DNA of 16,014 nucleotides, from positions 1 to 16,014 of IMG/VR virus record IMGVR_UViG_2660238499_000006; one strand, given 5' to 3'. The stretch comes from a virus (Duplodnaviria; Heunggongvirae; Uroviricota; Caudoviricetes). The position numbers and the translations under genes are program-made. This document shows, in pieces, positions 1 to 16,014 of this stretch. Each line of letters begins with the position of its first letter. The first letter of the stretch is position 1. Below the pieces are notes generated by a model. It was not told the DNA's origin and ran no database searches. It saw only the letters and a list, made by a program, of their open reading frames with translations.

Positions 1-297
1 GGGTGCTTAAGTTACAGGATCCTGGATTCGGGACCAGACGGTACTCAGACGACGCTTACCGCTGTCATTAAACATCACACCATTGAGGCTCTGAAGCTGT
101 TCCCGAACATTGGACAGCATTGCCGACTGTGATTTTACGGAAATAAATTCATAACCCTGATTCCGCAGGTCCTGAATCAGTTCACGTTCCAGGTCCGATT
201 CGCTCTGGTAGCTGTCGCTTGTTTGCTCAGCTTTGATGTACTTATCAAGGACGATAAAGTTATTGGATTCAGCAATGGTGTGTGTTTGATGAGTCAT
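1..297 (-). CDS. hsdR: Type I restriction endonuclease R subunit (HsdR), N-terminal ~97 codons only; gene runs off the window start
   Basis: Minus-strand ORF with ATG at 295-297 (MTHQTHTIAESNNFIVLDKYIKAEQ...), open to the window edge. Lies directly downstream of hsdM-hsdS in the order typical of plasmid-borne type IC systems. N-terminus resembles EcoR124-family HsdR from memory. Confidence 0.7.
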
Positions 298-3830: not shown

Positions 3831-4220
3831 ATGGGCTTCCCTTCTCCTGCGGCGGATTATGCTGAGAGCCGTATTTCTCTTGATCAGCAGATAATTAGAC
3901 ATCCTTCAGCGACCTACTTCATGAGGGCAGCTGATAGTCATCATCGTGAGGGAATATTACAGGGTGCATTGCTGGTGGTTGATTCCTCACTTACCCCAGT
4001 TGATGGTTCTCTGCTTGTATGCGCTCTGGATGGGGAATATCGCGTAAAAAGATACCGGAAGTATCCACGTCAGCATCTGGAGGATTTAAGCACCGGGAAG
4101 AAAGAGGCGTTACCAGTAGATGACGATGGATGCACGGGCAGTAATGCTGTGTTTGGTGTGATCACTCATGTCATTAATGATGCCCGAAGTGGGGAATTTG
4201 ATGATTGTCCGGTGATTTAA
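3831..4220 (+). CDS. humD: HumD, UmuD'-like translesion-synthesis accessory protein (S24 peptidase fold)
   Basis: 129 aa, MGFPSPAADYAE... is the UmuD' N-terminal signature. SD gaggtga 8 nt upstream and a LexA box in the promoter. Confidence 0.85.
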   Translation: MGFPSPAADYAESRISLDQQIIRHPSATYFMRAADSHHREGILQGALLVVDSSLTPVDGSLLVCALDGEYRVKRYRKYPRQHLEDLSTGKKEALPVDDDGCTGSNAVFGVITHVINDARSGEFDDCPVI

Positions 4221-4255
4221 GCTGCAAAGTGCTGGTGCTTTATGCCTGTGAAGTT

Positions 4256-4283
4256 TATAATTGTGTACACATAACGAGTACAC
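4256..4283 (+). promoter_or_regulatory. phd-doc promoter -10 (TATAAT 4256-4261) followed by a palindromic candidate Phd operator (GTGTACAC 4263-4270; GTACAC 4278-4283)
   Basis: Perfect TATAAT, then the self-complementary GTGTACAC and a second GTACAC half-site immediately before the phd RBS. Confidence 0.5.
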
Positions 4284-4292
4284 GAGGTGTTT

Positions 4293-4514
4293 ATGCAATC
4301 CATTAACTTCCGTACCGCGCGCGGCAACCTTTCTGAAGTGCTCAACAATGTTGAGGCCGGGGAAGAGGTTGAAATCACCCGCAGAGGCCGTGAGCCAGCA
4401 GTAATTGTCAGCAAGGCTACTTTCGAAGCCTACAAAAAAGCGGCGCTGGATGCTGAATTTGCATCCCTGTTTGACACTCTGGACTCCACCAACAAGGAAC
4501 TGGTTAACCGATAA
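4293..4514 (+). CDS. phd: Phd antitoxin (prevent-host-death), 73 aa
   Basis: [49 protein letters not shown]... ATG at 4293 preferred over the GTG at 4287 reported in the ORF track. Stop overlaps the doc start. Confidence 0.92.
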
Positions 4515-4894
4515 TGAGGCATATATCACCGGAAGAACTTATTGCGCTTCATGATGCGAATATAAGCCGCTACGGCGGCCTGCCGGGAATGTCAGATCCG
4601 GGTAGGGCAGAGGCCATTATCGGGAGAGTTCAGGCCAGAGTTGCCTACGAAGAGATCACCGACCTTTTCGAAGTCTCCGCCACCTACCTGGTGGCTACAG
4701 CGAGAGGGCATATATTCAATGATGCCAATAAGCGTACCGCGCTAAACAGTGCGCTGCTATTTCTACGCCGTAACGGGGTGCAGGTATTTGATTCACCTGA
4801 ACTGGCAGACCTTACTGTAGGGGCTGCGACCGGAGAGATATCTGTATCTTCTGTCGCCGACACGTTACGTAGATTGTATGGTTCCGCGGAGTAG
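4514..4894 (+). CDS. doc: Doc toxin (death-on-curing; Fic-fold kinase), 126 aa
   Basis: [22 protein letters not shown]... with the Fic-type motif [14 protein letters not shown] overlap with phd. Confidence 0.92.
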
Positions 4895-4898
4895 ATTA

Positions 4899-5078
4899 AT
4901 GGCACGTAAATACAACAAGTTGTCCCGTGAAGCGTTAAAGATGCTTCTTGATGGCGTGAGTCGCCGCGAGGTAAAGCAATACCTGGTTGGTAAGCAAATT
5001 GGTGCCAGGACCGCTATTGCTGTGTTATGCCGTCAGGAAATGGTTGTGCTTAAACAGAGAATGTCGGGCAGCAGATAA
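4899..5078 (+). CDS. pdcA: PdcA (post-doc protein A), small protein; start chosen at the ATG with SD gcggag
   Basis: ORF in the P1 position after doc. ATG at 4899 (MARKYNKLSREALKMLLDG...) has a better RBS than the upstream in-frame start at 4878. Confidence 0.5.
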   Translation: MARKYNKLSREALKMLLDGVSRREVKQYLVGKQIGARTAIAVLCRQEMVVLKQRMSGSR

Positions 5079-5105
5079 AGCCCAATCAGTGATTAAAGGT
5101 GTGAT

Positions 5106-6149
5106 GTGAAAGCCGTAATTACTCCCTTTGTACAAAAAGAGCTTGGCGTCGCCACATTCAAAGTGGATCAGGAGGTCAGAAAGCTGGTGGAGGCTGGCCG
5201 TAAATTTATTATGGAGCCGGTGCCGCGTGAGTTAATCGAGCACATGGACGACGGCCTCGTTGCTTCCGAGCAAACTATAGCAACAAATGAGGCGTTGCAG
5301 CCGTTTTTTAACAGCGATGAACTGTTTCGCCGTATTGGTGGAATTGACGCGCTGGTGGCGTGGTTGCGCAGGAAAGAGGGGCAATGCCAGGCCGCAGATC
5401 GTAGCTGGTGTGACAACCATATTGTCCACGCAGAACGAGACAATAGCGCGGTGTTGTTGTGCTGGCATCACGATAACCATTACCGGATGCGTGGTTTTAA
5501 TGAGCTGAAAGAAACGCTGCATAATAATCGCGTTAACTGGATACTGGATGTCGCCCGTCAGGAAATGGGGCTTTCAGATGGCCATGATTTAAGTATTCAG
5601 GAACTGTGCTGGTGGGCTTTCATGCGCGACATGATGCACCTGATGCCGGAAGAAGTCTGCCGTATATCAATAAATAAGATTAAGGCTGCAACGCAGGATA
5701 GCGGACCTCTGAAAGAGGCGGATATTCGCCCGTATGACGATCGCGCTACAGCATATGTTCAGATGATGGAAGAACGCGCCGCGCCGATGCGTGCAAAAGT
5801 ATGCTCTGTGGATGTTGACTCCGACCCTGGCATGGCGCATTTCAAAATACCAAAACTGCAATCGCTAAAATTACCTGAGTACATGGACTTTGTTGCTTCC
5901 CGTCCATGCTGTGGGTGTGGAGCTGCGGGAGCTGGCGCTCACATTACGCCTTATATCGTTCGTCATAGTCGATTATGCGCGCATGACATTTACGCAATTC
6001 CTCTGTGCCAGTCATGCCAGCGTGATATTGAGCGTGACCGCGATAATTGGGAGAAGACGCACGGTAGGTTGGCGATGCATCAACGATTGTTCTTTGATTA
6101 CGCGCTTGGAGTGGGCGTTATCACAAGTCATTCGTCGAGTGTTAGATAA
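5106..6149 (+). CDS. pdcB: PdcB (post-doc protein B), 347 aa, Cys/His-rich C-terminus (possible HNH/zinc-binding-like module)
   Basis: GTG start with SD aaaggtg. C-terminal ...[41 protein letters not shown]... Position conserved with P1. Confidence 0.6.
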
Positions 6150-6150
6150 A

Positions 6151-6193
6151 ATTGCTCTAATGTATTGCTATTTCTTTAATCGAGGGTATTATA
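6151..6193 (+). promoter_or_regulatory. C1 operator (ATTGCTCTAATgtATTg, 6151-6167) overlapping a promoter for lpa (-35 TTGCTA 6165-6170, -10 TATTAT 6187-6192)
   Basis: 11/11 match to the ATTGCTCTAAT operator core; the promoter hexamers are read directly from the sequence. Confidence 0.65.
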
Positions 6194-6237
6194 TTCCACG
6201 TTGATTAGTTGACATGGGCTAATCAGTAGGTGACAGG

Positions 6238-6690
6238 ATGTTACTTAACTGGCAGGGACGCCACTTCATGGAAATAAATCACTCACGAATAACATCGTAC
6301 GAGATTGCGGATTACATGATCCGCACTAAATCTCTTCTATCAGCGAAAGAACTCGCAGCAATTCTTGAAAAGGAACACCCGCATCTGGATGTCGATAAGC
6401 GCGATGTTTATCTGCGCTTAAAGGCTATCGCTGTGTCTAAGTATTCGTCTGTTTTGATTGATGACAGTACACGCCCACGTAGATTTCAGATCCACTCTCT
6501 GAATCCTGAATTCTTTCGCCGTAGCCGCGCTCCGCGCCGGTTTGATGAAAAACTCCAGAATGAACTCTATATGACGCAGGACGAAAAGGAACGCCGGGAG
6601 CACCAGCCTTGGGTAATGGCGCGTCAACTTTTCAATAAGGTGGCCCGTCAGCACCGTCATTACGGTAATGCCACATCCGCACGTATCTGA
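6238..6690 (+). CDS. lpa: Lpa, late promoter activator (gp10-like)
   Basis: 150-aa basic protein immediately upstream of pacA and preceded by a C1-operator-controlled promoter. An alternative start at 6268 (MEINHSR) cannot be excluded. Confidence 0.6.
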   Translation: MLLNWQGRHFMEINHSRITSYEIADYMIRTKSLLSAKELAAILEKEHPHLDVDKRDVYLRLKAIAVSKYSSVLIDDSTRPRRFQIHSLNPEFFRRSRAPRRFDEKLQNELYMTQDEKERREHQPWVMARQLFNKVARQHRHYGNATSARI

Positions 6691-6776
6691 TTGATTGCTT
6701 GCCCGTTCCGGGCCTTTTGACATGTGACTTTCGTTACCCTCGCGTCAAAAAGAGTTTTATACGAAAGGAAGCATAA

Positions 6777-7970
6777 GTGACCTGGGACGATCACAAGAAG
6801 AATTTTGCTCGCCTGGCGCGAGATGGTGGTTACACCATCGCACAGTATGCCGCCGAGTTTAATCTTAACCCTAATACCGCACGTCGTTATCTCCGTGCCT
6901 TCAAAGAAGACACCAGGACTGCGGACAGCCGCAAGCCAAATAAGCCAGTCAGGAAGCCACTAAAAAGCATGATCATTGATCACTCTAATGATCAACATGC
7001 AGGTGATCATATTGCGGCTGAAATAGCGGAAAAACAGAGAGTTAATGCCGTTGTCAGTGCCGCAGTCGAGAATGCGAAGCGCCAAAATAAGCGCATAAAT
7101 GATCGTTCGGATGATCATGACGTGATCAACCGCGCCCACCGGACCTTACGTGATCGCCTGGAACGCGACACCCTGGATGATGATGGTGAACGCTTTGAAT
7201 TCGAAGCTGGCGATTACCTGATAGATAACGTTGAAGCGCGGAAGGCCGCGCGCGCTATGTTGCGTCGGTCCGGGGCCGATGTTCTGGAAACCACTCTTCT
7301 TGAAAAGTCTCTTTCTCATCTCCTTATGCTGGAGAACGCCAGGGATACGTGTATTCGCCTGGTGCAGGAAATGCGCGATCAGCAAAAAGACGATGATGAA
7401 GGTACTCCGCCTGAATACCGTATCGCGAGCATGCTAAACAGCTGTTCCGCGCAGATAAGCAGTCTGATCAACACCATTTACAGCATCCGGAATAACTATC
7501 GAAAAGAAAGCCGGGAGGCGGAAAAGCACGCTTTGTCTATGGGGCAAGCTGGCATTGTTAAGCTGGCATACGAACGAAAGCGTGAAAATAACTGGTCAGT
7601 GCTGGAAGCGGCTGAATTCATCGAGGCGCATGGAGGAAAAGTGCCGCCCCTGATGCTGGAGCAAATCAAAGCCGATCTGCGTGCTCCTAAGACCAATACC
7701 GATGATGAGGAAAACCAAACAGCATCTGGCGCTCCATCACTTGAAGATCTGGATAAAATCGCGCGAGAACGGGCCGCCAGCCGCCGCGCTGATGCGGCAT
7801 TGTGGATTGAGCATCGTAGAGAAGAAATTGCCGATATCGTCGATACAGGTGGTTATGGTGATGTCGATGCGGAAGGCATATCAAACGAAGCATGGCTTGA
7901 ACAGGATCTGGACGAAGACGAGGAGGAAGACGAAGAAGTCACCCGCAAGCTATACGGGGATGATGATTAA
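6777..7970 (+). CDS. pacA: PacA, packaging (pacase) subunit; contains the pac site and an acidic C-terminal tail
   Basis: 397 aa; GTG start with SD aaggaag. pac hexamer clusters lie inside the ORF. C-terminus ...[19 protein letters not shown] overlap with pacB. Confidence 0.85.
6970..7128. other. P1-type pac site: four TGATCA hexamers (6970, 6977, 6989, 7004) and three TGATC(G/A) hexamers (7100, 7112, 7123) flanking the cleavage region; an extra TGATCG at 7151
   Basis: Seven hexamers in a 4+3 arrangement over about 160 bp, each carrying a Dam GATC site, matching the described organisation of the P1 pac site. Confidence 0.85.
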
Positions 7971-9454
7971 TGGCCAGAAGTTGCGTAACGGATCCACGTT
8001 GGCGCGAGCTGGTGGCGCTATATCGTTATGACTGGATTGCGGCCGCTGATGTTTTGTTCGGCAAAACACCTACCTGGCAGCAGGATCTGATTATTGAGTC
8101 TGTGCAGGAACAGGGTAGCAAGACATCTGTTTCGTCTGGTCACGGTACCGGGAAATCAGACATGACTTCTATCATGATCATGTTGTTCATAATCATGTAT
8201 CCCGGTGCCCGCGCCATTATCGTTGCGAACAAAATTCAGCAGGTAATGACCGGTATTTTCAAGTACATCAAGATAAACTGGGCTACTGCCACCAGCCGTT
8301 TTCCATGGCTTGCTGATTATTTTGTTCTGACAGAAACCGCTTTCTATGAGGTTACTGGTAAAGGTGTATGGACTGTAGTACCGAAGGGCTTTCGTCTGGG
8401 AAGTGAAGAAGCTCTCGCCGGTGAACACGCAGATCATCTTCTGTATATTATCGATGAAGCCTCCGGTGTCAGTGATAGAGCTTTCGGTATCATCACCGGT
8501 GCTCTTACCGGACAGGATAACCGCATCTTATTGCTGTCACAGCCTACACGCCCAAGCGGCTATTTCTACGATACACACCATAAACTGGCCAAGCGTCCTG
8601 GTAACCCTGATGGCGTTTATACGGCGATCACGCTTAACAGTGAGGAATCACCGTTGGTAACGCCAGCATTTATCAAAATGAAGCTGGCGGAGTACGGCGG
8701 GCGTGATAACCCTATGTACATGATTAAGGTACGCGGCCTATTCCCTAAATCACAGGATGGCTTCCTTCTTGGACGTGATGAGGTTGAACGTGCAACGCGG
8801 CGGAAAGTCAAGATTGCAAAAGGATGGGGCTGGCTTGCATGTGTGGACGTTGCTGGTGGTACGGGACGGGATAAGTCCGTTATCAATATCATGATGGTGT
8901 CCGGCCAGCGAAATAAACGCCGTGTAATCAACTATCGAATGCTGGAATACACAGACGTTACAGAAACGCAGCTTGCCGCCAAAATTTTCGCAGAATGTAA
9001 TCCTGAGCGATTCCCAAATATCACCATAGCGATAGATGGCGATGGCCTGGGTAAAGCAACGGCGGATCTGATGTACGAGTATTATGGTATTACCGTACAG
9101 CGTATACGCTGGGGTAAAAAGATGCATAGCCGTGAAGATAAGAGCCTGTACTTTGATAAACGTGCTTATGCCAACGTTCAAGCCGCAGAGGCCGTAAAAT
9201 CTGGTCGTATGAGACTGGATAAGGGTAATGAAACTATTGAGGAAGCGTCGAAAATCCCTGTAGGGATTAACTCCGCAGGTCAATGGAAGGTGATGAGTAA
9301 GGAGGATATGAAGAAAAAACTCAACCTGCACTCACCAGACCATTGGGATACATATTGTTTCGCTATGCTGGCGGATTATGTTCCTCAGGATGAAGTGCTT
9401 AGCGTCGAAGACGAAGCGCAGGTTGATGAAGCTCTGGCATGGCTTAATGAATAA
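7970..9454 (+). CDS. pacB: PacB, packaging (pacase/terminase-like) large subunit
   Basis: 494 aa, translationally coupled to pacA. Contains a Walker-A-like [10 protein letters not shown] motif and an acidic region. Confidence 0.85.
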
Positions 9455-9457
9455 ATA

Positions 9458-9474
9458 TTTGCTCTAATAAATTG
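9458..9474 (+). promoter_or_regulatory. C1 operator (tTTGCTCTAATAAATTg) immediately after the pacB stop
   Basis: 16/17 match to the ATTGCTCTAATAAATTT consensus. Confidence 0.7.
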
Positions 9475-9605
9475 TGTTTTTTAACTACCGATGTTACATT
9501 GAACCTGACCTCTTGCGCCTTGAGGCATTTTCGGTTTATGCTTATCAGGCACCTCAGTAAAACGGGTGCCGGGATTGAGACCCCGGATAATGCAAAAGGC
9601 GACAC

Positions 9606-9629
9606 AGACGCCAAAAGCGTCTTTTTTTG
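9606..9629 (+). terminator. Rho-independent terminator (stem agacgc/gcgtct, loop caaaa, T7)
   Basis: GC-containing hairpin followed by TTTTTTT on the plus strand, about 150 nt after pacB. Confidence 0.6.
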
Positions 9630-9813
9630 TGTCATGCCATCGCACAGCCATACGTAGCGTTTAGCTCAGAGATCAATGGTAGTGCTGGCTGGGCTGCCGA
9701 AAGGCAGGCCGGTTCCCTTTTGCGCCGGTAGTCTCAACCCAGTCAGTGCTACCGCCATTGAGATTGAGACCTCACGCGGTAGCTCCTTAAATTAGCAAAA
9801 GGAGGCTGCCATT

Positions 9814-10035
9814 GTGGCTACTATCCCTACCCCTGCTCATCCTGAATTTATCTGGCGCTTTTACTCCTGCCAAAAACGTCACTATCACTTCGTTATTGCA
9901 CCGACAGAAGATGAGGCACGTTCTCAGCTTCCGGATGCTCCCTGTATTTTCTCTGCCCGCTTTTCTACCGATTCGCGCAATTCTCTCAGTTACTGGTGCC
10001 TCCCTGTTAACGCTTCTGCTCAGGAGGGACTATGA
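9814..10035 (+). CDS. Icd-like small protein (candidate host cell-division inhibitor), 73 aa
   Basis: GTG start 8 nt after GGAGG. PEFIWRF...PTEDEARSQL...IFSARF fits the Icd-like F.WRF / TE.EAR pattern as I recall it. Its TGA stop overlaps the ATG of the next ORF (ATGA). Confidence 0.45.
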   Translation: MATIPTPAHPEFIWRFYSCQKRHYHFVIAPTEDEARSQLPDAPCIFSARFSTDSRNSLSYWCLPVNASAQEGL

Positions 10036-10214
10036 GAACGTCATTAGTCACCCGTGAAGAGATGATCGAGGCAATTGAACAGCACACTGCCTGTATCAGT
10101 ACCAGGGATATACCGGGCGTTATTGCCAACTACTTCATTCATGATCACCAAACAACTTTACCGGAGAAAGGACAAACACGCGGTTCACCGCATTCTGCTA
10201 ACCGATATCCGTGA
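10032..10214 (+). CDS. 60-aa ORF translationally coupled to the icd-like gene; possibly the N-terminal remnant of a frame-disrupted Ant1-like start
   Basis: ATG overlaps the upstream stop (ctATGA). The ORF ends at 10214 while the ant frame (+1) is open across the same region. Confidence 0.3.
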   Translation: MRTSLVTREEMIEAIEQHTACISTRDIPGVIANYFIHDHQTTLPEKGQTRGSPHSANRYP

Positions 10215-10284
10215 ATACCTGCTCGAACAGGGTCATCTGAATTACGCAACCGTCGCAGCCGAAGCACGCAAGGAGGCACACAGA

Positions 10285-11148
10285 ATGAAAGCAACTAACG
10301 TTAAATCAGAAAAAATTTATGCACCTTCAGTTCAGGAATCGGAACTGGTGGTTGTTCAGAATCAGCCGGATGAAATTCCCGTTCTGGAATGGCAGGGAGT
10401 ACGTGTCGTGACAACCGAAACTCTTGCTAGAGGGTATGGGGTCGATGAAGCCAATATTCGCAACAATTTGTCTCGCAACCTTGACCGCTTTGAAGAAGGT
10501 AAGCATTACTTTCTTCTAACTGGTTTAAAATTAAGAGAATTTAAGAACAGAGTAACCGGAAGTTACTCTGTTGGTAAGAACGCCAGAAGCCTTACACTCT
10601 GGACAGAGCGCGGCGCTGCACGCATGTCTAAGATCGTGGACACAAATGAAGCGTGGGCATTCTTTGAAAAACTGGAAGACAGCTACTTCCGACAAAAAGA
10701 ACAGCAACCGATCGCAATCCCCCAGACGCTTCCAGAAGCTCTGCGCCTGGCTGCCGAACTGGCTGAACAAAAGCAGCTTCTGGAACAGAAAGCCCACCAG
10801 CTAAATCAGCAGCTGGTGGCCGCCGCTCCTAAAGTCGATTTTGCCGACCGGGTATCAGTAGCTAAAGGGATCCTGATTGGGAATTTTGCAAAGGTTGTTG
10901 GACTTAAGCAAAACGCGCTGTTTGCCTGGTTACGGGAGAACGGCATCCTGATAGCGTCCGGTGGACGTAAAAATGTGCCGTTCCAGCAGTACATCAATGC
11001 GGGGTATTTCACGGTGAAAGAAGTGATGCTGGATGATGAAGATGGCTACCAGATACGGTTGACGCCTCAATTAACGGGTAAAGGCCAGCAGTGGTTGACG
11101 CGTAAACTGCTCGATGCTGGCTTGTTAAAACCGGTGGCGGCTGAATAA
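10285..11148 (+). CDS. Phage antirepressor-like protein (N-terminal ORF6N/Bro-N-like, C-terminal KilAC/Ant-C-like), Ant2-sized (287 aa)
   Basis: Strong SD AGGAGG 8 nt before the ATG at 10285. ...PVLEWQGVRVVTTETLARGYGVDEANIRNNL... and C-terminal ...FADRVSVAKGILIGNFAKVVGLKQNALFAWLRENGILIASGG...YINAGYFTVKEV... are antirepressor-type domain patterns. The frame stays open upstream to 10066. Confidence 0.6.
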   Translation: MKATNVKSEKIYAPSVQESELVVVQNQPDEIPVLEWQGVRVVTTETLARGYGVDEANIRNNLSRNLDRFEEGKHYFLLTGLKLREFKNRVTGSYSVGKNARSLTLWTERGAARMSKIVDTNEAWAFFEKLEDSYFRQKEQQPIAIPQTLPEALRLAAELAEQKQLLEQKAHQLNQQLVAAAPKVDFADRVSVAKGILIGNFAKVVGLKQNALFAWLRENGILIASGGRKNVPFQQYINAGYFTVKEVMLDDEDGYQIRLTPQLTGKGQQWLTRKLLDAGLLKPVAAE

Positions 11149-11155
11149 TGGAAGA

Positions 11156-11177
11156 ATGCCCGGTTGATGCCGGGCAT
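11156..11177. terminator. Hairpin (atgcccgg/ccgggcat) between the convergent ant-like and c1 genes; candidate bidirectional terminator
   Basis: 8-bp stem lying between the ant-like stop (11146-11148) and the c1 stop (11181-11183), with T-rich flanks on both strands. Confidence 0.4.
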
Positions 11178-11180
11178 AAT

Positions 11181-12032
11181 TTATTGCGCGCTTTCGGGGT
11201 TGTCGTTTACTGGCTGCCCCTTCTTGGTTTTACGGCTGCGCGTAACTGATGCGGCTGACTTAACCTTTTTCTCTTCGCGAGTGATGGCAATTTGTTTTTT
11301 TACATTTTCAATATCTGCCAGGCGATATATTTTTGCTTGCGGCCAGCGGTCGCAGATGATCGGTTCTATGGAGTCATAAAGGCTAAATTTTGCTTTTTCG
11401 AATTCACCGTTGATGATAATTCCATCACGGAGAGTTTCATCGCAGATAAACACGCCACACAGTGGCACATGGTAACTAACTGATTTACCATCATTGTAGT
11501 TAGGGCTACTGGAAATGTAGTGGACGCGCAGCATTGTTTCGCTAAAGCCGTGTACGCGCATACGGAATTTTTCATCCTCCGGGTACTGCCTCATTAGCTC
11601 TTTTGTTGCTTCCAGGTTCTCTATGTATTTCGCACTGTGCTCATTGATCCCCGCGCTTTTTTGGATGCGAATGTCCTTATCAATCAGATGAATAATGCGG
11701 CCAGCGGTCATGTTGACGCTGTTCACAGCTTCTGTCTGATAAGTTGTAACCTTGCGCACACCGCGAAGGATGTTAGGCACTGGATATAAAATAGTCTTTG
11801 GGATATTGAGGTCTGGGTACTGTTCCAGTTCCCGCGCCATTAAAGTCCATTTATCAATTTCAGCCTGAATGCTGTCCGTTTCTTTGAACGGTAGAACGAC
11901 AACCGGGCGTACAGGACGACCGTCGCTGGCGGTATCAACGTGTTGGGCGCGTGCAACAGCTTTTTTTAGAAAGAGATCCCTGAAGCTGACGAACTCCTGG
12001 TACAGTTGTTCGCCGTAGACATAATTTATCAT
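11181..12032 (-). CDS. c1: C1 repressor of lysis (primary immunity repressor), 283 aa
   Basis: MINYVYGEQLYQEFVSFRDLFLKK...; length, position next to coi/loxP and the surrounding operators all match P1 C1. Confidence 0.92.
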   Translation of the reverse strand: MINYVYGEQLYQEFVSFRDLFLKKAVARAQHVDTASDGRPVRPVVVLPFKETDSIQAEIDKWTLMARELEQYPDLNIPKTILYPVPNILRGVRKVTTYQTEAVNSVNMTAGRIIHLIDKDIRIQKSAGINEHSAKYIENLEATKELMRQYPEDEKFRMRVHGFSETMLRVHYISSSPNYNDGKSVSYHVPLCGVFICDETLRDGIIINGEFEKAKFSLYDSIEPIICDRWPQAKIYRLADIENVKKQIAITREEKKVKSAASVTRSRKTKKGQPVNDNPESAQ

Positions 12033-12126
12033 TGATCCTCCTCCAGAATTGACATGGTCAATAACGCCCGGCTGAGAAAACCGGTCATTACTGACCTATA
12101 TTATAGAGGGATCAAACAAAAATAAT

Positions 12127-12143
12127 AGATTTATTAGTGCATT
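12127..12143 (-). promoter_or_regulatory. C1 operator (reverse orientation, about 14/17) between coi and c1
   Basis: agATTTATTAGtGCAtT compared with AAATTTATTAGAGCAAT. Confidence 0.5.
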
Positions 12144-12352
12144 TATTGTGAGTCTAACTGGTTAGTTGCCATGAGATATTCGATTGTGTCAGTGAGGTCA
12201 TCCAGGTCGTCTTGGGTGATGCGGTACTCCTGATTGGATATCTTTGAGTAGTGTTCAGCAATGGCGCGGGCAGCGTCGGTTTCGGCAGGGTCTACAGATA
12301 AAGCGTTAGAGCAATGTCTAACGTCGTCGATGGTTGGTTGAATGAAAGCCAT
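12143..12352 (-). CDS. coi: Coi, C1 inactivator, 69 aa
   Basis: 69-aa acidic ORF (MAFIQPTIDDVRH...) directly upstream of c1 on the same strand, with SD GAGG 7 nt before the ATG. Confidence 0.8.
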   Translation of the reverse strand: MAFIQPTIDDVRHCSNALSVDPAETDAARAIAEHYSKISNQEYRITQDDLDDLTDTIEYLMATNQLDSQ

Positions 12353-12590
12353 AATTATGCCTCACTGTATTGACAACACAGAGCCTGAAGCTCTGACCTA
12401 CTGTTTCACCCATGATCCATGCTGGGGTAATCTAACAACATTGCGCTGTGTGTAAGATGAGCAATGCATAGCTGTAATGCCGTTGTATAAGGTTTCCCTG
12501 TTTGCTCATTTCCTTCTGAGCCGCTCTACAACGCTGAAGACACATTAAATAGTGAATCCAAAGTCGTATTACGTAACGGCGGCAAAACTA

Positions 12591-12607
12591 TAATTTATTA
12601 GAGCAAT
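12591..12607 (-). promoter_or_regulatory. C1 operator (reverse orientation, 16/17), overlapped by a minus-strand TTGACA (12609-12614) and a plus-strand TATAAT (12589-12594)
   Basis: tAATTTATTAGAGCAAT. Candidate immC promoter/operator driving coi-c1. Confidence 0.7.
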
Positions 12608-12673
12608 TGTCAAACAACTATGAAAAACAATCCAGTTTTTAGCTGGTGGAGTGGGATTTTTCTCTCAAAATTT

Positions 12674-12690
12674 ATTGCTCTAATAATTCT
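12674..12690 (+). promoter_or_regulatory. C1 operator (ATTGCTCTAATAATTCT, 14/17)
   Basis: Direct match to the operator core, 44 bp left of loxP. Confidence 0.65.
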
Positions 12691-12733
12691 TGATTTTTGT
12701 GCGCAGCTGGACGTAAACTCCTCTTCGGACCTA

Positions 12734-12767
12734 ATAACTTCGTATAGCATACATTATACGAAGTTAT
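12734..12767. other. loxP site (ATAACTTCGTATA-GCATACAT-TATACGAAGTTAT)
   Basis: Exact 34-bp canonical loxP: two 13-bp inverted arms around the asymmetric 8-bp spacer. Confidence 0.98.
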
Positions 12768-12786
12768 ATTAAGGGTTATTGAATAT

Positions 12787-12859
12787 GATCAATTTACCTG
12801 TAAATCCATACAGTTCAATACCTTGGCAGGTCAAATAGTGATCACTTGATCATTTGATC
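12787..12859. promoter_or_regulatory. Cluster of four Dam GATC sites in the cra/cre upstream region (candidate methylation-sensitive promoter)
   Basis: GATC at 12787, 12840, 12848 and 12856; three lie within 20 bp (gtGATCacttGATCatttGATCaagg). Confidence 0.5.
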
Positions 12860-12956
12860 AAGGTTGCGCTACGTAAAATCTGTGAAAAATTGGCGGTGTC
12901 AGTCCTACAGATTTCGCGTAGCGCACTTAGCACCACCAATCAATCAGAGGTGAAAA

Positions 12957-13178
12957 ATGGGATATTCAGCTGCTAAAGTGTCCACTCATCTTGAGCTTGA
13001 GAAAAATCGTGGTTACTGGCGGGCAAAAGGGTTTGATCGTGATAGTTGTCAACTGTCATTATCGCGCGGTGAAGAAAAGATAGAACGCAGTCGCGGTCGT
13101 TGGCGTTTCTATGACGAGAACCATAAACAGGTAAAGGCAGAGCCGATCCTGTACACTTTACTTAAAACCATTATCTGA
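12957..13178 (+). CDS. cra: Cra (cre-associated small protein)
   Basis: 73-aa ORF with SD gaggtg, immediately upstream of cre as in P1. Confidence 0.65.
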   Translation: MGYSAAKVSTHLELEKNRGYWRAKGFDRDSCQLSLSRGEEKIERSRGRWRFYDENHKQVKAEPILYTLLKTII

Positions 13179-13185
13179 GTGTTAA

Positions 13186-14217
13186 ATGTCCAATTTACTG
13201 ACCGTACACCAAAATTTGCCTGCATTGCCGGTCGATGCAACGAGTGATGAGGTTCGCAAGAACCTGATGGACATGTTCAGGGATCGCCAGGCGTTTTCTG
13301 AGCATACCTGGAAAATGCTTCTGTCCGTTTGCCGGTCATGGGCGGCATGGTGCAAGTTGAATAACCGGAAATGGTTTCCCGCAGAACCTGAAGATGTTCG
13401 CGATTATCTTCTATATCTTCAGGCGCGCGGTCTGGCAGTGAAAACTATCCAGCAACATTTGGGCCAGCTAAATATGCTTCATCGTCGGTCCGGGCTGCAA
13501 CGACCAAGTGACAGCAATGCTGTTTCACTCGTCATGCGACGGATCCGAAAAGAAAACGTTGATGCCGGTGAGCGTGCAAAACAGGCGCTGGCGTTCGAAC
13601 GCACTGATTTCGACCAGGTTCGTTCACTCATGGAAAATAGCGATCGCTGCCAGGATATACGTAATCTGGCATTTCTGGGGATTGCTTATAACACCCTGTT
13701 ACGTATAGCCGAAATTTCTAGGATCAGAGTTAAAGATATCTCACGTACTGACGGTGGGAGAATGTTAATCCATATTGGCAGAACGAAAACGCTGGTTAGC
13801 ACCGCTGGTGTAGAGAAGGCACTTAGTCTGGGGGTAACTAAACTGGTTGAGCGATGGATTTCTGTCTCTGGTGTGGCTGATGATCCGAATAACTACTTGT
13901 TTTGCCGTGTCAGAAAAAATGGTGTTGCCGCGCCATCTGCCACCAGCCAGCTATCAACTCGCGCCCTGGAAGGGATTTTTGAAGCAACTCACCGATTGAT
14001 TTTCGGGGCTAAGGATGACTCTGGCCAGAGGTACCTGGCCTGGTCTGGACACAGTGCCCGTGTCGGAGCCGCGCGAGATATGGCCCGCGCCGGAGTTTCA
14101 ATACCGGAGATCATGCAAGCTGGTGGCTGGACCAACGTAAATATTGTCATGAACTATATCCGTAACCTGGATAGTGAAACAGGGGCAATGGTGCGCCTGC
14201 TGGAAGATGGCTATTAG
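13186..14217 (+). CDS. cre: Cre site-specific tyrosine recombinase, 343 aa
   Basis: MSNLLTVHQNLPALPVDATSDEVRKNLMDMFRDRQAFSEHTWKMLLSVCRSWAAWCKLNNRKWFPAEPEDVRDYLLYLQARGLAVKTIQQHLGQLNMLHRRSGL...; start lies 436 bp from the loxP centre, as in P1 numbering. Confidence 0.98.
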   Translation: MSNLLTVHQNLPALPVDATSDEVRKNLMDMFRDRQAFSEHTWKMLLSVCRSWAAWCKLNNRKWFPAEPEDVRDYLLYLQARGLAVKTIQQHLGQLNMLHRRSGLQRPSDSNAVSLVMRRIRKENVDAGERAKQALAFERTDFDQVRSLMENSDRCQDIRNLAFLGIAYNTLLRIAEISRIRVKDISRTDGGRMLIHIGRTKTLVSTAGVEKALSLGVTKLVERWISVSGVADDPNNYLFCRVRKNGVAAPSATSQLSTRALEGIFEATHRLIFGAKDDSGQRYLAWSGHSARVGAARDMARAGVSIPEIMQAGGWTNVNIVMNYIRNLDSETGAMVRLLEDGY

Positions 14218-14234
14218 CCATTAGCGCGCAAATG

Positions 14235-14251
14235 ATTGCTCTAATTCTTTG
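14235..14251 (+). promoter_or_regulatory. C1 operator (ATTGCTCTAATTCTTTG) just after the cre stop
   Basis: 11/11 core match. Confidence 0.6.
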
Positions 14252-14267
14252 GTATTTATGGTGACAT

Positions 14268-14579
14268 GTGAGAAAGGATTTCAACATCGACGGAAAATAT
14301 GTAGTGCTGTCTGTAAGCACTAATATTCAGTCGCCAGCCGTCATTGTCACTGTAAAGCTGAGCGATAGAATGCCTGATATTGACTCAATATCCGTTGCGT
14401 TCCCTGTCAAAAGTATGCGTAGTGCTGAACATTTCGTGATGAATGCCACCGAGAAAGAAGCACGGCGCGGTTTTGCCAAAGTGATGGCCGAGTTTGGCGA
14501 ATTTTTGGGGCACGTTGACAAAGCCCTTTCAATCAGTTCAGCAAGGTCCAAAGCGTTAACAGCTTCCATGCTGAAATAA
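14268..14579 (+). CDS. Hypothetical protein in the c8 position between cre and ref; weak start (GTG, no clear SD)
   Basis: 103-aa ORF. The coding call is uncertain because the adjacent terminator belongs to the opposite strand and the start context is poor. Confidence 0.3.
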   Translation: MRKDFNIDGKYVVLSVSTNIQSPAVIVTVKLSDRMPDIDSISVAFPVKSMRSAEHFVMNATEKEARRGFAKVMAEFGEFLGHVDKALSISSARSKALTASMLK

Positions 14580-14604
14580 AAAAAGCCTGGCAAGGAGCCA
14601 GGCT
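14574..14604 (-). terminator. Strong rho-independent terminator for a leftward (minus-strand) transcript
   Basis: 8-bp perfect stem agcctggc/gccaggct with loop aagga; on the minus strand it is followed by TTTTTTTATTT. Confidence 0.65.
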
Positions 14605-14709
14605 GCACAAAAGAGCGGGTTTGTATTCCGCATTCAATCAATCAAGAAGGAGTATAGTACACAGGTACTGAAGTGAAAAAATGTGATTCGCGATAAACAA
14701 ATAACTTTA

Positions 14710-14739
14710 ATTGCTCTAATTGATTGCTATAATTGAGCC
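14710..14739 (+). promoter_or_regulatory. Two overlapping C1 operators (ATTGCTCTAATTGATTG 14710-14726; ATTGCTATAATTGAGCC 14723-14739) with an embedded perfect -10 TATAAT (14728-14733)
   Basis: Operator cores and the -10 hexamer are read directly; the arrangement resembles the tandem C1 operators reported upstream of ref in P1. Confidence 0.65.
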
Positions 14740-14793
14740 GCAGTTTTTGTCAACTACGAAGACGTTGCCATTACTTCACTCCTTGACATCATT

Positions 14794-14819
14794 GGCGGCC
14801 ATTAGGCCGCCTTTTTTTT
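14794..14819 (+). terminator. Strong rho-independent terminator/attenuator ending 5 nt before the ref ATG
   Basis: 7-bp GC stem ggcggcc/ggccgcc, loop atta, followed by T8. Confidence 0.7.
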
Positions 14820-14824
14820 GCCAT

Positions 14825-15262
14825 ATGAAAACAATCGAACAAAAACTTGAACAGCGCCGCGAGTGGCAGAAGGCAGCCAGAGAACGAGCGATCGATCGGC
14901 AACGGGAAAAGTTGGCTGACCCCGCCTGGCGAGAATCGCAATATCAGAAAATGCGGGATTCTATCGACCGCCGTATCGCTAAACAGAAAGAGCGCCCACC
15001 AGCCAGCAAAACGCGGAAAAGTGCGGTAAAAATAAAATCTCGTGGCTTGAAGGGGCGAACACCGACGGCGGAGGAACGGACCATCGCCAATGCTCTTGGC
15101 ACTCTCCCCTGCATTGCCTGCTACATGCATGGAGTAATATCTGAAGAGGTGTCTCTGCACCATATCTCCGGTCGTACCGCGCCGGGTTGTCACAAAAAGC
15201 AATTGCCCCTTTGTAGATGGCACCACCAGCATGCAGCACCGGCTGAAGTAAGAGGGGTTTGA
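14825..15262 (+). pseudogene. ref: ref (recombination enhancement function, HNH-type nuclease), 3'-truncated by a Tn3-family insertion; the last codons and the stop come from the transposon inverted repeat
   Basis: MKTIEQKLEQRREWQKAARERAIDRQREK... with a Cys/His cluster (CIACYMHGVISEEVSLHHISGRTAPGCHKKQLPLCRWHH). The ORF is 145 aa against the 186 aa I recall for P1 Ref, and the frame runs into the IR starting at 15254. Confidence 0.6.
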
Positions 15263-15291
15263 GGGCCAATGATGTAAAAAACCACGCTAAG
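15254..15291. repeat. Tn3-family 38-bp terminal inverted repeat (GGGGTTTGAGGGCCAATGATGTAAAAAACCACGCTAAG)
   Basis: GGGG...ACGCTAAG architecture; the first 18 bp match the gamma-delta/Tn1000-type IR as I recall it. The tnpA stop codon (15287-15289) lies inside it, as is typical of Tn3-family elements. Confidence 0.8.
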
Positions 15292-15956
15292 GAGGTAATT
15301 CATTGTTTAAATTGAGATTTAACGGCCTCAATTCCCCCTTCATAATATCCTCCGGTAGTGTGAACGTATAATGTCCCAGCATGTTGATATGACCATGCAT
15401 CAGAGGCGAAAGCCGCGCGATATGTTCATCTTCTGGCCCTTCCCCAGTGCTACGCAGGTGCGACAAGGCTTCCTGCATATAAAGCGTATTCCACAGCACC
15501 ACTGCGTTTGTCACCAGACCCAGCGCACCCAACTGATCTTCCTGCCCCTCGCGGTAACGTTTTCTGATCTCACCACGCTGACCGTAGCAAATGGCTCTTG
15601 CCACGGCATGGCGACCTTCGCCCCGGTTAAGCTGTGTTAGGATCCTGCGGCGATAGTCCTCATCATCAATATAGTTGAGAAGATACAGTGTCTTGTTAAC
15701 TCTTCCGACCTCCATTATTGCCTGAGCAAGCCCTGACGGTCGGGTACTTCTCAATAGCGATCGAATGAGTTCTGACGCATGAATTGTGCCCAGCTTCAGC
15801 GAACCTGCAACCCGCATCATCTCATCCCAGTGGCTTTCGATTTTAGAAAGGTCAACACAACCCCGAGCCAGTTCGTCCAACGCCCCGTAATTCGCTGCTT
15901 TGTCAGCCCGCCAGAACACCGCCTCACCAGCATCCGCCAGACGAGGTGAAAATTGG
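15287..15956 (-). pseudogene. tnpA: Tn3-family transposase (TnpA), C-terminal ~220 codons only; 5' part removed by IS26
   Basis: Translation ...IESHWDEMMRVAGSLKLGTIHASELIRSL...LNYIDDEDYRRRILTQLNRGEG...LGLVTNAVVLWNTLYMQEAL...HINMLGHYTF matches the conserved Tn3-family TnpA C-terminus. The frame is cut at the IS26 boundary, with an in-frame stop inside IS26. Confidence 0.8.
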
Positions 15957-16014
15957 GGCACTGTTGCAAATAGTCGGTGGTGATAAACTTATCATCCCCT
16001 TTTGCTGATGGAGC
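15957..16014 (+). mobile_element. IS26 left end (IRL GGCACTGTTGCAAA plus 44 bp of leader), continuing beyond the window
   Basis: GGCACTGTTGCAAATAGTCGGTGGTGATAAACTTATCATCCCCTTTTGCTGATGGAGC matches the IS26 IRL and tnp26 upstream sequence from memory. Confidence 0.85.

Follow-up and report, generated by a model that had tools for sequence, protein, structure and literature searches.

P1-like plasmids are known to vary in their res-mod region, for which a role as a resistance-gene hot spot has been proposed (PMC9603915). SJ46, which carries blaCTX-M-27, and other resistance-bearing P1-like phage-plasmids have their cargo directly past ref, in this variable region. Heat resistance has been described at the same place: pFec10 (Kamal et al. 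2021), a P1-derived IncY plasmid with TLPQC and a close match to plasmid A of E. coli H15, has its cargo inserted beside ref, as has the H15 plasmid, and is free of antibiotic-resistance genes; the main text of that paper makes no mention of Tn3 or of the recombination enhancement function (PMC7984374). The product of ref is a RecA-dependent HNH nuclease, whose structure in P1 is PDB 3PLW. His153 of Ref is a ligand of the active-site zinc and is required for the second cut, and the H153A variant still nicks the paired strand (PMC3973344). Intact Ref is described as giving a P1-dependent enhancement of ciprofloxacin killing (PMC4713147).

Here we analysed 16,014 nucleotides of a Caudoviricetes record (IMGVR_UViG_2660238499_000006), hereafter the window, at whose right end ref, a Tn3-family transposon and IS26 are nested. 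The nested junction is real, ordinary and already present in public records, P1-derived IncY plasmids with a heat-resistance island have been published, and no new mechanism is involved. Taken as a whole, the reading that we hold with high confidence is that of a P1-like plasmid with a Tn3-family transposon in ref, truncated by IS26, and with probable heat-resistance cargo behind it.

The window as part of a P1-like phage-plasmid

The window is 95-97% identical at the DNA level to P1, P7, SJ46 and many IncY plasmids. On this identity and on its gene order (Table 1), we assign it to a P1-like (IncY) phage-plasmid; the replicon itself lies outside the window. No record identical to the whole window was found among plasmids or complete E. 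coli genomes, the best matches being 96-97% identical over 84-90%. Both ends lie inside repeated elements, as in short-read contigs, and the window looks like such a contig ending in repeats. At the left end, an IS3-type end cuts hsdR; the cut is absent from the longest contigs with the same hsdS, in which hsdR is intact. A first guess from the motif GTAAGCG, that this left-end element belongs to the IS66 family, was rejected, as the adjacent orfA carries PF01527 (HTH_Tnp_1), which we take to be the mark of an IS3-type orfA.

Upstream of and within ref, positions 14700-15254 align with P1 1952-2506 at 95.1% identity and with no net gaps. The P1 annotation places P2ref at 1957-1985, Oref at 1962-1978 and P1ref at 2017-2044, and the function of their counterparts in the window would be carried over from P1.

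Table 1. Features of the window and the basis of their assignment
Feature	Position	Strand	Basis
P1-like (IncY) phage-plasmid gene order: phd-doc, pdcB, lpa, pacAB, c1, cre, c8, ref			ORFs and DNA identity
P2ref with C1 operator Oref	Oref ~14710-14726 (region 14705..14792)	+	homology to P1
P1ref promoter	14765-14792	+	homology to P1 and promoter scan match at 14765-14792
Truncated ref, codons 1-143 of RecA-dependent HNH nuclease Ref, SJ46-like allele	14825..15253	+	amino-acid identity and Pfam
Chimeric 145-codon ORF: Ref 1-143 plus Gly-Val-stop from the transposon repeat	14825..15262	+	translation
TAAGA, left copy of the 5-bp target-site duplication	15249..15253	.	second copy in H15 plasmid A
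38-bp terminal inverted repeat, tnpA-proximal end of an unnamed Tn3-family transposon	15254..15291	+	38/38 match
tnpA remnant, codons 781-1002 of 1002 plus stop, stop inside the repeat	15287..15956	-	identity to full-length TnpA
First 58 bp of IS26, with the 14-bp terminal repeat GGCACTGTTGCAAA at 15957-15970	15957..16014	+	identity to complete IS26

Truncation of ref

The reading frame starts at the ATG at 14825, and DNA homology to ref ends at 15253/15254, after TAAGA (95.1% identity to P1 ref and 99.5% to SJ46 ref). At the amino-acid level, Ref 1-143 is 99% identical to SJ46 Ref and 92% to P1 Ref. The G at 15254 is assignable to either ref or the repeat; we placed the break after 15253 because the repeat starts with GGGG elsewhere. 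From there the frame reads GGG GTT TGA of the repeat as Gly-Val-stop. The last codons and the stop are thus transposon-derived, as a preliminary description of this DNA had it. That intact P1 Ref homologues might naturally end here can be set aside, since they have 186 residues in P1 and 193 in SJ46, of which the window keeps 143.

In comparison with P1 Ref, residues 1-143 are conserved, as is the promoter/operator region, whereas residues 144-186 (the last 43), with the zinc ligand His153 among them, are missing. Pfam RecA_dep_nuc matches only its positions 1-64 of 103, the other 39 being gone, and the protein is a truncated remnant that lacks a complete RecA_dep_nuc (HNH) domain with His153. 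The 3' part of ref that is lost at the window locus is GAAAAATACCC. Because the last 43 residues of the nuclease domain, including His153, are missing, RecA-directed double-strand breaks by this Ref should be lost. The protein is very probably inactive, in line with the earlier suggestion that loss of the C-terminus may abolish nuclease function, and judged by its sequence ref is a pseudogene. Complete loss of every activity would go further, and the nicking retained by Ref H153A counts against it. Loss of Ref could remove the enhancement of ciprofloxacin killing mentioned above (PMC4713147), which would be a small phenotypic consequence.

A Tn3-family transposon end truncated by IS26

The repeat at 15254-15291 reads GGGGTTTGAGGGCCAATGATGTAAAAAACCACGCTAAG, starting with GGGG and ending with ACGCTAAG. 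It occurs once in the window, with none expected by chance (200 shuffles). It agrees at 38/38 positions with one end of a 7,517-bp element in Salmonella plasmid p08-4425.1 (L007), and at the opposite end of that element the repeat recurs inverted, with 37/38 positions matching. This bears out the 38-bp Tn3-family inverted repeat that had been placed at 15254. The complete 7.5-kb transposon carries tnpA, tnpR and SIR2-HerA. On the minus strand, the ORF at 15287-15961 is identical at 222/222 residues to positions 781-1002 of the 1002-aa TnpA of p1585m1_C. The first two of its 224 codons belong to the IS26 repeat, leaving 222 true tnpA codons, where about 220 C-terminal codons had been estimated. 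Only the second half of the domain DDE_Tnp_Tn3 (PF01526) is matched by the remnant (positions 194-389 of 389, E 1e-76); full-length TnpA contains PF13700 and PF01526.

With Tn3 and the Tn3 subgroup, the transposon shares 38-bp repeats that start with GGGG and end with ACG(C/T)TAAG, a 5-bp target duplication, a TnpA of ~1000 aa with DUF4158 and DDE_Tnp_Tn3, and the divergent arrangement of tnpA and tnpR. It differs from Tn3 in that its TnpA is only 65% identical, its repeat matches at 25/38 positions (counted by hand, base by base) and its passengers are a SIR2-HerA defence pair instead of bla. The window itself holds the ~38-bp GGGG repeat with the inner ACGxTAAG and the large TnpA with its DDE_Tnp_Tn3 domain, in a truncated, non-functional copy; the resolvase gene that, with a res site, adjoins tnpA in the Tn3 family is absent from the window. 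Full copies of the transposon carry a divergent recombinase (resolvase) gene, and its absence here is attributed to deletion by IS26. The remnant is predicted to be immobile because it retains one end only and lacks the catalytic N-terminal two-thirds of TnpA. The attempt to identify the Tn3-family member led to the complete 7.5-kb element and to no specific name, as literature and protein searches gave only 'Tn3 family transposase'; in a distant DNA search, Tn3 was the nearest named element (~71% over 1.2 kb).

The last 58 bp of the window are identical (58/58) to bp 1-58 of the complete 820-bp IS26 in CP034659.1, at the end upstream of tnp26, which would read rightwards, starting 6 bp past the window end. 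This identity and the 14-bp terminal repeat place the sequence in IS26 (IS6 family) and confirm that tnpA is cut by an IS26 starting at 15957. Truncation of a neighbouring mobile element is typical of IS26.

As the window starts and stops in repeated elements, the way short-read contigs do, its junctions might be artefacts of a chimeric contig joined via short repeats. However, they are reproduced to the base in entries deposited as complete plasmids, and many independent assemblies share them: the exact 145-aa chimeric Ref product was found in 277 index blocks of public assemblies and the 224-aa ORF spanning TnpA and IS26 in 93. An artefact is effectively refuted. Among complete E. coli genomes, five have the ref/transposon junction and two the tnpA/IS26 junction. 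The two ORFs are exact markers of a widespread P1-derived IncY plasmid lineage, and the value of this finding lies mainly in annotation and epidemiology.

Mostly heat-resistance cargo in relatives with the ref junction

The long-read complete plasmids CP061756.1 (E. coli strain 873.10; beef, Uruguay) and CP034659.1 (ATCC 98082) are 100% identical to window positions 14700-16014, both junctions included, whereas the remaining backbone is 93-98.6% identical and IS26 is complete in both. Directly past the junction, CP061756.1 has IS26, a locus of heat resistance (LHR) and another IS26. In CP034659.1, a truncated IS3-type element and GmrSD-like genes adjoin IS26 instead, and LHR is absent within 20 kb of the junction. 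Plasmid A of E. coli H15 (CP010179.1) has the same ref/transposon junction at TAAGA, followed by IS26 and LHR; it differs in its longer tnpA remnant, its P1-like ref allele, its LHR1, and the presence of the right transposon end and the 3' part of ref, while in the window the ref allele resembles that of SJ46 and the IS26 breakpoint lies elsewhere. In p1585m1_C, the same left junction is followed by full tnpA, tnpR, SIR2 and ATPase genes.

The flanks past the ref junction were inspected over 15-20 kb in CP061756.1, CP034659.1 and CP010179.1 and over 55 kb in CP086387.1. No antibiotic-resistance genes are listed in these flanks of the four complete plasmids. They contain genes of heat-resistance (LHR/tLST), efflux, metabolic and restriction/defence type, the heat-resistance genes being the only predicted resistance genes. 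Using hsp20, clpK/clpG, hsp20-GI, yfdX1/2, hdeD-GI, trx-GI, kefB-GI, psiE-GI, htpX and degP as the core set, we found the locus (LHR/tLST/TLPQC) in three of the four plasmids (CP061756.1, CP010179.1 and CP086387.1). The cargo of the complete relatives is thus an island of heat and chlorine resistance with relevance to food safety, in contrast to the antibiotic-resistance cargo of SJ46-type phage-plasmids, and an IS26 junction alone is no predictor of antibiotic-resistance cargo.

Closer still to the window are two metagenome contigs from separate assemblies: over positions 4825-16014, L012 is 100% identical and L014 shows a single gap. After tnpA, the two share the same continuation, IS26 bp 1-102 and then TGTGGGATGCAAATAAAG... 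Past this IS26 stub, L012 carries degP-htpX-psiE-GGDEF-kefB-trx-mscS, 83-87% identical to LHR1, and shows the distal half of the island only (degP to mscS) before the contig ends; L014 shows just 585 bp of this flank. In the chromosome of E. coli 81, the same end bounds tnsABCDE and a tLST2-type island. A metagenome misjoin as the source of the 102-bp stub was rejected, since the same junction comes from two assemblies made with different assemblers and its non-IS26 side begins precisely where a Tn7-like element known from complete chromosomes ends. This IS26/Tn7-like junction was found in none of the complete E. coli genomes. In at least one contig that shares the junction, L024, IS26 is intact past bp 102, to at least bp 110, where the contig ends; this counts against a continuation of the window as in L012 and L014. 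Outside the compared 11.2 kb, the L012 and L014 plasmids may not match the source of the window, because the cut in hsdR is not seen in the longest contigs with the same hsdS.

The DNA beyond IS26

The continuation past 16014 is unreadable in the window because the apparently short-read contig ends in a repeat, 58 bp into IS26. Judging from the relatives, the next DNA would most probably be 44 more bp of IS26 and then a Tn7-like (tnsABCDE) transposon inserted in IS26, with a tLST2-type heat-resistance island. It was also considered earlier that the sequence past 16014 might not be IS26; in L012 and L014 this is half true, as the relatives' IS26 runs on for 44 bp and is then interrupted. A less likely continuation, likewise suggested by relatives, is an intact IS26 with LHR1 or some different non-antibiotic cargo behind it. 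The cargo behind the junction is probably a heat-resistance island and not antibiotic resistance.

The preliminary description thus stands in its structural part, with all four elements where it had placed them, the nesting, the TAAGA duplication and the likely inactivation of Ref. It was also right in placing the edge of an acquired cargo region here, adjoining the variable res-mod region of P1-like plasmids (PMC9603915). Its expectation of antibiotic-resistance cargo past the window did not hold up. Resistance regions are usually assembled by IS26, and an IS26-assembled antibiotic-resistance island in place of mat/res/mod would agree with this; SJ46 has blaCTX-M-27 and IS903D ~1.1 kb downstream of ref, and the res-mod hot-spot proposal (PMC9603915) points the same way. 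However, the flanks of the four complete plasmids and pFec10 (PMC7984374) lack such genes, as given above, and the contigs identical or nearly identical to the window enter the Tn7-like tLST2 element instead. We therefore consider an antibiotic-resistance island at this place improbable.

Somewhat less improbable, but still unlikely, is a continuation as in CP034659.1, where a complete IS26 abuts the truncated IS3-type element in a large cointegrate or rearranged plasmid with no adjoining heat-resistance island. Both junctions are common to CP034659.1 and the window at 100% identity. In addition, the outer 60 bp of the truncated element directly after IS26 are identical to window positions 1-60, so the two ends of the window could neighbour one IS26/IS cluster. 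The backbone, however, is only 98.6% (11182-16014) and 93% (4217-9461) identical, compared to 100% for L012. The shared IS end is weak evidence because it is found elsewhere too; CP061756.1, for one, has it 245 bp beyond hsdR.

Insertion history of the transposon in ref

The order of events can be read from the nesting of the observed structures. By replicative transposition, a 7.5-kb Tn3-family transposon (tnpA, tnpR, SIR2-HerA) would have landed at TAAGA in ref, and IS26 would later have entered tnpA. IS26-mediated deletion or rearrangement may then have removed everything past TnpA codon 781, that is, the rest of tnpA, tnpR and SIR2-HerA, together with the far end of the transposon and, at the window locus, the 3' end of ref.

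The window holds one transposon end only. The second copy of TAAGA, which had been proposed for the other end, was found in plasmid A of E. coli H15 (L019, ~6030-6203), which carries the insertion at this very site: there, TAAGA and the rest of ref come after the right-hand repeat. This right junction was recovered only with a synthetic query made of repeat, TAAGA and ref 3' end, and it is the one right-hand junction on record. In the flanks of four relatives, the other transposon end was not found with up to 10 mismatches allowed, and the P1 ref 3' end and mat gave no BLAST match.

Two ref haplotypes flank the identical insertion point: SJ46-like in the window, CP061756.1 and CP034659.1, and P1-like in H15 and p1585m1_C. 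The P1-like haplotype has 27 differences in 14825-15253, the last just 15 bp from the repeat, and the two haplotypes agree fully over 703 bp on the transposon side. This pattern could mean that TAAGA in ref is a preferred target that was struck more than once, and a single ancestral insertion, spread by descent and recombination, needs extra recombination to explain two flanking haplotypes. However, the same 5-bp target hit twice in the same orientation by chance is very unlikely, and just one right-hand junction is available. Branch migration stalls at large heterology, and gene conversion up to the transposon border is therefore plausible. The identity of the transposon is uninformative here because the element is near-invariant everywhere; compared with plasmid-borne copies from Salmonella and Citrobacter, it shows 0-1 differences. 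On balance, repeated insertion at TAAGA seems doubtful, and we favour the single ancestral insertion. More doubtful still is the wider proposal that TAAGA is a true preferred target hit independently in two ref alleles, and that the stack of Tn3-family transposon, IS26 and TnsE-encoding Tn7-like tLST2 element marks P1-like phage-plasmids as recurrent landing pads. If it were true and the plasmid still phage-inducible, food-relevant heat and chlorine resistance could spread by infection.

The ref Gene Is Truncated by the End of a Tn3-Family Transposon

The window is part of a P1-like phage-plasmid: it comprises truncated hsdR, hsdS, hsdM, phd-doc, pdcB, lpa, pacA, pacB, the ant region, c1, cre, a c8-like gene and ref in this order, and is 95–97% identical to P1, P7, SJ46 and many IncY plasmids. 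On the left, hsdR is interrupted after codon 79 by the end of an IS3-type insertion sequence, which recurs in the flanks of comparison plasmids next to an orfA of family PF01527. In CP034659.1, this same truncated element directly adjoins the far side of the IS26 next to the tnpA remnant. Since the window begins with this IS3-type end and stops 58 bp inside IS26, its limits suggest a complete short-read contig with repeats at both ends.

Homology to ref of P1 and SJ46 stops at 15253/15254. The G at 15254 can be assigned to either ref or the adjoining repeat, and the break was placed after TAAGA (15249–15253) because the repeat begins with GGGG in the unrelated context of Salmonella plasmid p08-4425.1. 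The product consists of Ref residues 1–143 followed by Gly-Val-stop (GGG GTT TGA), so that, as the preliminary description had it, the last codons and the stop are transposon-derived. Intact homologues do not naturally end here, as full-length P1 Ref has 186 aa and its SJ46 counterpart 193 aa. The truncated protein keeps 64 of the 103 positions of the Pfam domain profile, while the folded nuclease domain spans residues 77–186 (PDB 3PLW). Among the lost residues is His153, an active-site zinc ligand; the H153A variant fails to make the second cut required for a double-strand break (PMC3973344). The proposed inactivation of Ref is thus strongly indicated by its sequence. The promoter and the C1 operator upstream of ref appear to be retained by homology to P1, and the truncated protein may therefore still be produced.

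Beyond residue 180, the Ref protein of phage SJ46 differs from that of P1 (GGTAEFGKNRTLS vs MANIMH), and blaCTX-M-27 and IS903D lie within about 1.1 kb past ref, indicating that the cargo region of SJ46 also begins at the extreme 3' end of this gene.

The Transposon Remnant Belongs to a 7.5-kb Element

The 38-bp sequence adjoining ref occurs once in the window (0 expected by chance) and agrees at every position with one end of a 7,517-bp element carried by the Salmonella IncHI plasmid p08-4425.1; the opposite end of that element is a 37/38 inverted copy. The element has genes for a TnpA of 1002 aa, for a divergent resolvase and for a SIR2 and HerA pair matching PADLOC defence models (E-values of 4e-155 and 7e-250, respectively). 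The full TnpA shares 65% identity with that of Tn3, and 25 of the 38 positions of its repeat are shared with the repeat of Tn3 (manual count). No published name for the transposon was found in the literature; public sources give only "Tn3 family transposase". The transposon is widespread in Enterobacterales plasmids, with the SIR2-HerA anti-phage defence pair as passengers.

In the window, the tnpA remnant covers only positions 194–389 of the 389 in the Pfam profile DDE_Tnp_Tn3 and lacks the N-terminal DUF4158 region; the first two codons of its reading frame derive from IS26. With a single end left and the catalytic N-terminal two-thirds of TnpA missing, the remnant should be immobile. Sequence identities confirmed the positions and descriptions previously assigned to ref, the Tn3-family repeat, tnpA and IS26.

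Coordinates of features in the window and its relatives
Feature	Location	Strand	Remark
Outer 59–60 bp of IS3-type insertion sequence	window 1–60		
Same IS3-type end	L003 22539–22598; L001 3720–3779 (comparison plasmids)		
hsdR, truncated	window 60–297	minus	
cre	window 13186–14217		
ref, retained part	window 14825–15253		start ATG 14825
ref of P1	NC_005856 2077–2637		
ref of SJ46	L009 3116–3697		
Tn3-family terminal repeat	window 15254–15291		
tnpA remnant ORF	window 15287–15961	minus	222/222 identity to TnpA residues 781–1002
IS26 bp 1–58	window 15957–16014		58/58 identity to complete 820-bp IS26, end preceding tnp26
Intact 7.5-kb Tn3-family transposon	L007 (p08-4425.1) 12002–19518; L002 (comparison plasmid) 15555–22864		
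Continuation of window 15957 onwards	L012 11133–11500; L014 11133–11819 (metagenome contigs)		
Tn7-like element with tLST2-type island	L027 (E. coli 81 chromosome) about 6700–35560		~29 kb

Insertion at TAAGA Generated a Target Duplication

The first relatives examined contained neither a second repeat nor the 3' end of ref near the junction. A synthetic query (right end, TAAGA and ref 3' part) matched one record, E. coli H15 plasmid A (CP010179.1). Its right junction reads ...CATCATTGGCCCTCAAACCCC TAAGA GAAAAATACCCATGG... and continues through the normal ref end, about 58.7 kb from the left junction. This shows that the Tn3-family transposon entered ref at TAAGA and duplicated these 5 bp, as had been predicted for the other transposon end. 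All DNA now between the two ends in this plasmid is later accretion or rearrangement.

Two haplotypes of ref are found next to the identical insertion point (window 14825–15253 compared with L002 and L004, flanks of comparison plasmids): an SJ46-like one in the window, CP061756.1 and CP034659.1, and a P1-like one in p1585m1_C and H15. Between the two haplotypes there are 27 differing sites, of which the last lies just 15 bp short of the repeat; the adjoining 703 bp of transposon sequence are 100% identical. Repeated insertion of the transposon at a preferred site may have produced two such haplotypes, but the simpler account is gene conversion that extended as far as the heterology border.

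Among 5,426 complete E. coli genomes, five contained the ref/transposon junction, which was also present in four PLSDB plasmids; the tnpA/IS26 junction was present in two complete genomes, CP061756.1 (strain 873.10) and CP034659.1 (ATCC 98082). In indexed public assemblies, the exact 145-aa chimeric Ref product was found in 277 blocks and the 224-aa ORF across the tnpA/IS26 junction in 93. RefSeq annotates the features under the junction as "Ref family recombination enhancement nuclease" and "Tn3 family transposase".

Several Relatives Carry Heat-Resistance Cargo

The preliminary interpretation is partly supported: the structure and the inactivation of Ref hold, but the guess that antibiotic resistance lies beyond the junction does not. 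No antibiotic-resistance genes are listed in the flanks of p1585m1_C, H15 plasmid A, CP061756.1, CP034659.1 or a draft genome (L011); the cargo beyond the window is probably heat resistance. In p1585m1_C, efflux and redox genes come after the full transposon, together with IS elements and the heat-resistance island LHR1, up to an IS26. In H15 plasmid A, a longer stretch of tnpA survives, and after it come IS26, a cation-transporter gene, IS110-type elements and LHR1; lactate-utilisation genes sit immediately inward of the right transposon end, and tetrathionate genes are located past the ref 3' part. CP061756.1 shares the exact junctions of the window and continues with IS26-LHR1-IS26. After the same junctions, CP034659.1 has IS26, the truncated IS3-type element and GmrSD-like genes, and the draft genome carries tnpA, tnpR, IS26 and ars genes.

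The island of H15 plasmid A matches that of pFec10, a P1-derived IncY plasmid that combines TLPQC/LHR with tetrathionate, lactate and arsenic genes and lacks antibiotic resistance (PMC7984374). Neither Tn3 nor the recombination enhancement function is mentioned in the main text of the pFec10 paper. The res-mod region beside ref is a recognised variable region in P1-like phage-plasmids (PMC9603915).

A Tn7-Like Element Probably Follows IS26

The contigs nearest to the window come from two different metagenome assemblies. L012 is 100% identical to window 4825–16014, and in L014 a single gap is the sole difference; all other relatives have at least 27 substitutions in 11182–16014 and about 7% divergence in 4217–9461. 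Both contigs continue alike, with IS26 up to bp 102 and then TGTGGGATGCAAATAAAGTTTCATCC... Three spaced AAAGTnTCATCCT copies were read directly from the sequence of this flank (TGTGGGATGCAAATAAAG...). L014 stops 585 bp into the flank; in L012, it is followed by degP, htpX, psiE, a GGDEF fragment, kefB, trx and mscS, which are 83–87% identical to LHR1. In complete E. coli chromosomes, homology to the flank begins within one base of the same position. The strain 81 element encodes TnsA, a Mu-type transposase at the TnsB position, an ATP-binding protein at the TnsC position, TnsD and TnsE, and its island contains hsp20, clpK, cls, ftsH, hsp20-GI, yfdX1/2, hdeD-GI, mscS, trx-GI, kefB, GGDEF, psiE, htpX and degP. 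As the flank corresponds to the end of this element, the IS26 of L012 and L014 is interrupted after bp 102 by a Tn7-like transposon with a tLST2-type heat-resistance island. In another contig with the same junction IS26 is intact beyond bp 102, so a Tn7-like continuation of the window itself is probable, not certain.

Tn7 elements can flank tLST (reviewed in PMC8290217). The structure was therefore read correctly; it is an ordinary one that public records already contain, and the plasmid family to which it belongs has been published.

There are hints of a wider association of this Tn3-family transposon with LHR-bearing replicons. The same transposon end was also found on plasmids NZ_CP073626.1 and NZ_CP072541.1 of E. 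coli AW1.7, the reference heat-resistant beef isolate.
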